A stretch of DNA of 64,000 nucleotides from Escherichia phage BF17: sequence record MW822008.1; one strand, given 5' to 3'. Both the position numbers and the translations under genes were made by a program. How positions within the stretch are numbered: position 1 is the stretch's first letter; every line of letters begins with the position of its first letter. The notes beneath the pieces are model-generated. The model searched no databases, was not told the origin of the DNA, and saw only the letters and a program-made list of their open reading frames with translations. This document shows positions 28,374-28,809 of this stretch, piece by piece.

Positions 28374-28790
28374 ATGAATTATGTTTGGGCAGATGTAGTA
28401 AAATCTCTCGTATCAACACATGATGTTGATTTACCAGATAGTCTGGTATTTAACAGATGGTACTATCCAAACCCAGAGGACTGTAACGTTGGAATTGGAT
28501 TTTTTATTAATGATAAATCTAATTTGTTTGGATTAATTGAAGATGAGACAAAATCCAACCTTATATTCTCGATTGAGTTGAATGCTGATCACATAAAATA
28601 CTACACCAATAAAATGGACGAAGACGATGGAGATGTTATAATCCCAGCAGAAATAGACGAAGCTTCATTTTTTCAGTTATCATTGATTTATGATCTATCT
28701 AACATTACTTATGATAATGTGAAAGACCTTTTTATATTGTACAATAAAATGTATAATTACTTTTTAAGACCTTTTTATATTGTACAATAA
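28374..28790 (+). CDS. hypothetical protein (138 aa); 3' end lies inside a 43-bp tandem duplication
   Basis: ORF track; the last 22 codons are encoded by the duplicated segment. Confidence 0.5.
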   Translation: MNYVWADVVKSLVSTHDVDLPDSLVFNRWYYPNPEDCNVGIGFFINDKSNLFGLIEDETKSNLIFSIELNADHIKYYTNKMDEDDGDVIIPAEIDEASFFQLSLIYDLSNITYDNVKDLFILYNKMYNYFLRPFYIVQ

Positions 28791-28809
28791 AATGTATAAT
28801 TACTTTTTA
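28724..28809. repeat. perfect 43-bp tandem direct duplication (2 copies)
   Basis: AGACCTTTTTATATTGTACAATAAAATGTATAATTACTTTTTA occurs at 28724-28766 and again at 28767-28809; unit contains palindrome TTGTACAA and a TATAAT hexamer. Confidence 0.9.

Follow-up and report, generated by a model that had tools for sequence, protein, structure and literature searches.

A perfect 43-bp tandem duplication across a gene end is one of two common alleles in Asteriusvirus jumbo coliphages

We found that the 43-bp repeat at the end of gene 28374-28790 of Escherichia phage BF17 is an ordinary short tandem duplication, of a kind long known in phage genetics and present here as a natural polymorphism. The two-copy state is one of two common alleles in Asteriusvirus, neither private to one phage nor an artefact. 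The window, i.e., the whole stretch of 64,000 nucleotides that was analysed, is by its sequence DNA of an Asteriusvirus jumbo coliphage (PBECO4/121Q group, genomes of ~350-385 kb), with best identities over 24 kb of 97-98% to EC.P1, vB_Ec-M-J, WPEC5, and fEgEco12. Our joint reading, which we hold to be probable, is that one slippage-type duplication, near-neutral in effect, was disseminated by recombination, the region being highly mosaic, and that the TATAAT hexamer and the palindrome TTGTACAA within the unit belong to an AT-rich coding end.

Tandem Repeats Finder delimited an array at 28723-28809 with a period of 43, 2.0 copies, 100% matches, 0 indels, and a score of 174, versus 77 for the runner-up array in the 64-kb window. 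The 43-mer unit, AAGACCTTTTTATATTGTACAATAAAATGTATAATTACTTTTT, matched exactly at 28723-28765 and 28766-28808 (all features on the plus strand, palindromes being strandless), the two copies forming 86 bp head-to-tail with 100% identity and no spacer. No third site was present in the window even at ≤3 mismatches, and 0 matches were obtained in 100 dinucleotide-preserving shuffles. The duplication is thus confirmed as genuine and beyond chance, and the perfect head-to-tail duplication that an earlier note had described was borne out; the coordinates given there, 28724-28809, represent the same array shifted by one base in phase, given that base 28809 (A) continues the period. The junction between the copies reads ACTTTTT/AAGACC (the slash marking the boundary), and microhomology at the end points of the duplication amounts to 1 nt (A) only. 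A 9-bp direct repeat, CTTTTTATA, occurs once inside the unit and once after it; slippage at this repeat would yield a 32-bp event, not a 43-bp one. Each copy carries a TATAAT hexamer (28752-28757 in copy 1, 28795-28800 in copy 2) and the 8-bp palindrome TTGTACAA (28737-28744 and 28780-28787).

The gene that the repeat overlaps (28374-28790) has no assigned function, belongs to phrog_36582, and is a homologue of 121Q gp534; its 138-aa product has the same sequence as QXN76254.1 from phage BF17. Copy 1 contributes the final 14 codons together with part of a 15th (K117 to L131) and is translated as KDLFILYNKMYNYFL. Given that 43 is a multiple of 3 plus 1, copy 2 is read one frame off and is translated as RPFYIVQ (residues 132-138) followed by a new TAA stop at 28788-28790, located directly 3' of the palindrome (CAA TAA), while the final 18 nt of copy 2 are intergenic. 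The proposal that reading copy 2 out of frame provides the stop codon and alters the C-terminus therefore proved correct: the protein has 138 aa with two copies and 131 aa, ending in ...YNYFL, with one. A vestigial ancestral stop (TTA TAA, 28810-28812) is out of frame here and is the working stop in single-copy relatives, as seen in the alignment with PBECO4 and 121Q. The match to the phrog_36582 profile (residues 7-131 against profile positions 2-126 of 126) ends at ...YNYFL, and given that the profile stops exactly at residue 131, the seven extra residues lie outside the family. No Pfam match was found for this gene or its small neighbours, and AlphaFold2 modelling of the 138-aa protein from a 13-sequence alignment gave an unusable model (mean pLDDT 39).

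The C-terminus is plastic, as natural small indels give several alternative endings. One position of the RPFYIVQ tail can be V, G, or E, and other natural endings of the gene are YNYFI, YNYFFITEEL, and YNKIFITDEL. The ending ...YNYFFITEEL likely results from a sixth T in the T-run, as judged at the protein level, and ...YNKIFITDEL arises from an 11-bp deletion. These two small indels at the 3' end of the gene were observed in proteins P0019 and P0020, the DNA of the latter corresponding to L029 1340-1400.

The duplication also alters the distance to the downstream gene (28826-29011, phrog_4189), which has no assigned function and encodes 61 aa with a hydrophobic N-terminus. Its Shine-Dalgarno sequence GAGG and ATG lie at 28815-28828. 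The spacer from the stop to this ATG is 13 nt with one copy and 35 nt with two, the stop being 22 nt farther away, and in single-copy genomes the stop is located 2 nt upstream of the Shine-Dalgarno sequence. Neighbouring genes encode a LysM-lysozyme, a phage HPF/RaiA ribosome factor, and a CCA-adding enzyme, alongside small genes annotated without function. The HPF/RaiA ribosome-associated factor (PF02482, 27987-28319) and the CCA-adding tRNA nucleotidyltransferase (PF01743 and PF12627, 29960-31075) flank the small-gene block on either side, and both are already familiar from Asteriusvirus annotations. Within the same block, genes 29002-29415 and 29402-29824 are adjacent, overlapping paralogues, both assigned to phrog_20693 (BLASTP E = 5e-9 over the C-terminal 40 residues), a pair that by its similarity is a local gene duplication. 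Rfam and tRNA scans gave no credible match for the region of the 43-bp unit, and RNA folding of 28700-28830 predicted weak AU-rich hairpins only (z-score -2.45).

Comparison with relatives revealed both alleles. In a five-genome alignment, the identical duplication was present in vB_Ec-M-J and WPEC5, and a single copy was present in PBECO4 and 121Q, in which the gene ends as ...YNYFL-TAA, 13 nt ahead of the next ATG. A 171-bp query against all database phages returned 34 records, representing 32 distinct genomes: four had two copies (vB_Ec-M-J, WPEC5, EC.P1, and A4) and 28 had one, in agreement with the earlier expectation of one copy in related phages. The single-copy database genomes align with a 43-bp gap and the same flanks, and the unit sits at one place per relative genome. 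At the DNA level, we read the junction in 15 other loci, comprising the 4 database phage genomes and 11 public assemblies, and it was identical in 16/16 carrier loci (the window plus L001, L002, L005, L011, L016-L023, and L026-L028). In a protein search, the RPFYIVQ tail was found in 8 of the 12 clusters formed at 90%, and the long-form protein occurred in ~46 contigs versus at least 160 for the short forms, as counted partly via protein length. The junction had no match in IMG/VR or JGI metagenomes, and a scan for the unit recovered only 121Q in IMG/VR and none in GTDB genomes; given that these collections are nearly devoid of Asteriusvirus, these results are uninformative. Complete E. coli genomes gave no match.

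It is extremely improbable that the repeat is an assembly artefact of a truly single-copy source genome, which had been named as the main risk. Nothing speaks positively for such an artefact beyond the general point that short perfect repeats are prone to mis-assembly, whereas the duplication recurred in four database phages that were sequenced independently (Thailand, China, Ireland, and one unstated source) as well as in several NCBI, ENA, and Logan assemblies. Additionally, assemblers tend to collapse such repeats rather than create them, and BF17 was sequenced with 2 x 300-nt MiSeq reads, long enough for 86 bp. Imperfect versions of copy 2 also exist, and these are therefore not products of repeat resolution.

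The lack of mismatches between the copies had been taken as a sign of a recent event, a claim that did not survive the comparison. The 15 other loci come from varied isolates, countries, and backgrounds, and given that the flanks of the carriers differ widely and that copy 2 has decayed in some lineages, the duplication is not recent in that sense. Both copies are perfect in nine loci (the window, L001, L011, L016, L017, L018, L020, L022, and L023). In WPEC5 (L002) and EC.P1 (L005), the tail of copy 2 is replaced by a cassette junction, EC.P1 also having one substitution in copy 1. The copy 2 palindrome is mutated to TTGGACAA in L021, and copy 2 of L028 has three substitutions (TTGAACAA, TACAAT, and TTAA). 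TATAAT was lost from copy 2 through a 12-bp deletion in L019 and through an 11-bp deletion in L026 and L027. The same 11-bp deletion is found in a single-copy genome, L029, which has no TATAAT whatever.

Among the 11 cassette-free carriers, nucleotide diversity (pi) was 0.000 in copy 1 and 0.008 in copy 2, versus 0.02-0.24 in flanking 43-bp bins, and there were no variable sites in copy 1 and two in copy 2, versus 5-21 in the other 43-bp bins. In these carriers, the non-coding part of copy 2 (18 bases) had 0 substitutions and, in one of them, a deletion, while the 17 nt at 28809-28825 were highly variable, with 8 variable sites. Synonymous variation affected 1/15 codons of copy 1 versus 29/116 in the rest of the gene, a weak deficit (p about 0.08 by our own binomial estimate). 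This low variability could reflect constraint on DNA or RNA instead of recency or gene conversion. It is also explicable without regulation, given that the C-terminal third is the most conserved part of the protein, that the duplicated patch may be younger than its present backgrounds, or that gene conversion may act between adjoining identical copies.

We propose that a single illegitimate, slippage-type event, with only 1 nt of microhomology at its junction, would have duplicated 43 bp at the gene end, that homologous recombination would then have moved the duplication into many genomic backgrounds, and that it would occasionally have been lost by recombination or slippage between the two copies, the two-copy allele probably being neutral or nearly so. 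Spread by homologous recombination is suggested by the fine-scale mosaicism of the region: identity to the window swings from ~60% to 100% per 100-bp bin in every relative, and A4 is identical to the window solely over 28653-28812, with flanks that differ by ~14% upstream and >25% downstream. The duplication was found with five N-terminal protein types and with both C-terminal haplotypes, YDLSN and HDVSD/N, mostly YDLSN. Complete linkage to YDLSN, true of the 14 genomes compared first, no longer applied once P0017, P0007, P0028, P0029, and P0031 were included.

Given that the junction is invariant, a single origin followed by recombination is favored over recurrent duplication at a mutational hot spot, which we consider improbable. 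Recurrence would account for the occurrence of the duplication on both C-terminal haplotypes and five N-terminal types, and for L018 and L025 being otherwise identical; the site also has deletions of 11 bp and 12 bp, a T-run of varying length (T5/T6), and a cassette insertion point. However, repeated events would have had merely 1 nt of microhomology to guide them to the same junction in every carrier, the 9-bp repeat CTTTTTATA predicts an event of a different size, and the region itself directly displays recombination at a scale of 100 bp.

Traces of loss may be present as well. The single unit of TH47 pairs a palindrome like that of L028 copy 1 with TACAAT and the sequence 3' of it as in L028 copy 2; it looks as if the two copies of an L028-like duplication had crossed over, homoplasy being the alternative. 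L018, with two copies, and L025, with one, are free of substitutions across 3,393 bp, the 43-bp indel being their sole difference, which makes reversion from two copies to one possible. Given that L025 is a k-mer-based Logan contig, possibly of the same isolate as L018, it may represent an assembly collapse. Three assemblies (Logan contigs L024 and L025 and ENA contig P0021) have one intact unit and lack the cassette on YDLSN, the haplotype linked to the duplication, and k-mer-graph assemblies (Logan, metagenome assemblers) are sometimes one-copy on an otherwise two-copy haplotype. In these three, a perfect repeat could have been collapsed during assembly, in which case the evidence for reversion would be weaker.

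In several relatives, a ~500-bp, 2-gene cassette is placed exactly at the 3' edge of the unit. It is located at 1411-1923 in L002 (WPEC5), occurs also in EC.P1, Turkey3, fEgEco12, Ecwhy_1, CMSTMSU, and ph0011, and comprises a 123-aa ORF with a TTG start and a 41-aa ORF. One and two copies of the unit each occur both with and without the cassette. The 41-aa ORF has a paralogue at 29836-29958 in the window (phrog_34272); the idea that the whole cassette was paralogous to its neighbours was dropped, as it applied to this ORF only and the 123-aa ORF had no significant similarity.

The earlier note had further proposed that the unit carries a promoter or operator whose dosage upstream of 28826 is doubled by the duplication, and our results lend this no support: TATAAT occurs at chance frequency, a usable -35 box is lacking, and natural variants lose the motifs. 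In this window of 64% A+T, TATAAT occurs 70 times on the plus strand versus 69 expected. Each copy has an exact TATAAT as a sigma-70 -10 hexamer, but the best -35 at 17-nt spacing is TTTTTA (3/6), and there is no TTGACA-like box at 16-18 bp. By a simple sigma-70 position weight matrix, whose frequencies follow published compilations, the unit's TATAAT scored 5.6 bits, a score reached or exceeded by 494 plus-strand sites, versus 13-15 bits for convincing sites in the window. A promoter scan did not list the site and revealed no excess of promoter-like sites in the region. An extended -10 promoter, a first impression from TGTATAAT, was rejected given that its TG is located at -14/-13 instead of -15/-14. 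Perfect 8-bp palindromes are not enriched in the window (268 versus 338 expected), and the three other copies of TTGTACAA in it are all inside coding sequence. The palindrome thus does not behave as an operator would, being neither intergenically recurrent nor always retained in copy 2, which reads TTGGACAA or TTGAACAA in some lineages.

Three promoter classes are visible in the window: TTGACA-17-TATAAT; TGGGAC-17-TGnTATAAT, with examples at 19391, 25745, 31100, and 50105; and a late TATAAATA type. These correspond to the classes predicted for the related phage CBB (PMC5259590), a Rak2-like phage whose 'Promoter 1' class consists of TGAAACG or TGGGAC, 17 nt, and TGnTATAAT (PMC5259590 Table S6). 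The 43-bp unit fits none of the three. A 'Promoter 1' box was not found 17 nt upstream of an extended -10 in the unit, TGAAAG occurring at distances of 14 or 26 nt from the hexamers and largely beyond the repeat, and the T4-type late motif TATAAATA is absent from the unit and present elsewhere in the window, e.g., near 3850 and 33840. A separate stretch of 690 bp (19371-20060) begins with a promoter-like TGGGAC-17-TGATATAAT, has no ORF of at least 50 codons, appears more G+C-rich than its surroundings, and gave neither an Rfam family nor a tRNA; an RNA not yet characterised could be encoded here.

A more plausible transcription signal for the gene block than the 43-bp unit appears to be located upstream of gene 28374, where a sigma-70-like promoter match (TTGACT-17-TATAAT, 13.7 bits, 28299-28327) is followed by a G+C-rich hairpin (28328-28355). 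No terminator-like site was found between this match and the CCA-enzyme gene. The match overlaps the end of the HPF gene, and the hairpin has an 11-bp stem, the predicted transcript start being located inside it. Pairs of a hairpin and a promoter-like -10 are also seen in other intergenic gaps, e.g., 9924-9990 and 34663-34741, where the hairpin comes first.

Taking these results together, we regard it as unlikely that the unit is a promoter and/or operator of the downstream gene block with its dosage doubled by the duplication. Some observations are in keeping with such a role: each unit has an exact TATAAT and an 8-bp palindrome, the two sites are 43 bp apart, i.e., about four helical turns and on the same DNA face, the unit stands out as conserved in all genomes, copy 2 varies unusually little in most carriers, and synonymous variation is low in copy 1. 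Against this role stand the chance frequency of TATAAT, the poor TTTTTA box with its TG out of register, the low matrix score shared with hundreds of sites, the lack of fit to any promoter class of the window, the coding location of the other TTGTACAA copies, and the strong promoter match already present at 28299-28327 with no terminator before the downstream genes. Selection for doubled dosage is further disfavored given that natural variants mutate the palindrome in copy 2, change its TATAAT to TACAAT or delete it, and in L029 delete it from the sole copy. The hexamer and the palindrome would rather have the look of an AT-rich coding end than of a demonstrated promoter or operator.

Given that the literature searched contained no promoter map, transcriptome, or transcription-start data for Asteriusvirus, we keep a slight chance for the unit being a non-canonical regulatory element of some kind. 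A narrower version, in which the unit is a non-canonical phage-specific element (a phage sigma factor promoter or an RNA leader) with its copy number switching between one and two in the population, seems very unlikely, and the only pointer to it is the near-invariance of both copies in most carriers versus the very variable flanks. If true, switching between one and two copies would tune the 61-aa putative membrane protein and the neighbouring paralogues in the manner of a contingency locus, in a virulent jumbo phage.

Selection could also have kept the duplication for reasons other than transcription, through the seven extra residues or through a stop-to-RBS spacing that would change translational coupling, a reading that we find improbable. 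The allele has persisted and spread to many backgrounds, RPFYIVQ is intact in most carriers, the new stop is kept in every carrier read, and the stop of the single-copy form, 2 nt before the Shine-Dalgarno sequence, has a coupling-like geometry that the duplication abolishes. However, the tail tolerates V, G, or E at its variable position, the C-terminus accommodates the alternative endings described above, the family profile stops before the tail, the gene has no functional annotation and no usable structure model, and most sampled genomes are without the duplication. Near-neutrality of the two-copy allele, combined with one origin and spread by recombination, is the reading that we retain.

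Spontaneous short tandem duplications in phage genes are well known from the Streisinger slippage model and the frameshift and duplication mutants of T4 lysozyme and rII. The 43-bp duplication resembles these in being head-to-tail, a few tens of bases long, spacer-free, frame-shifting, and possibly reversible, with the single-copy allele in relatives. In contrast, those were laboratory mutants, whereas the 43-bp allele is common in nature, occurs in many recombinant backgrounds, and has 1 nt of microhomology. A second point of comparison is the PeSL (promoter-early stem-loop) cassettes of T4-type phages, which Arbiol and colleagues are said to have described in 2010 as dispersed intergenic regulatory repeats with a proposed role in modular gene shuffling. 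Similarities are the AT-rich promoter-like repeat at a gene boundary, the hyperplastic small-gene region, and the 2-gene cassette at the 3' edge in relatives; unlike PeSL, the 43-bp unit is not dispersed, has no notable stem-loop, and does not match a consensus early promoter. A dispersed PeSL-like repeat was rejected given that the window had 0 other copies at ≤3 mismatches and no further copy of a 21-nt core at ≤4 mismatches.

Elsewhere in the window, tandem near-consensus sigma-70 promoters are located at 46925-46970 and 47017-47062, ~92 bp apart, in a 316-bp non-coding gap (46909-47224) upstream of gene 47225. They consist of GTTGACAA, a 16-nt spacer with TG, and TATAATGACCAC, with cores ~84% identical and 13.8 bits each. 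Like the 43-bp repeat, they form a tandem pair of promoter-like units that precedes a gene, but they carry TTGACA, an extended -10, and TATAAT, are mutually diverged, and are non-coding, whereas the 43-bp unit scored 5.6 bits and is mostly coding. As predicted promoters, they would exemplify promoter duplication far better than the 43-bp repeat does.

The 43-bp duplication has little consequence for biology at large. For annotators, the 131-aa and 138-aa proteins should be treated as alleles of one gene, perfect identity between copies is no proof of recency where recombination or gene conversion is active, and a lone TATAAT is uninformative in a genome of 64% A+T. For Asteriusvirus, it represents a clean documented case in which a short tandem duplication has lasted as a common allele, is shuffled by fine-scale recombination, and then decays in a hyperplastic block of small genes.
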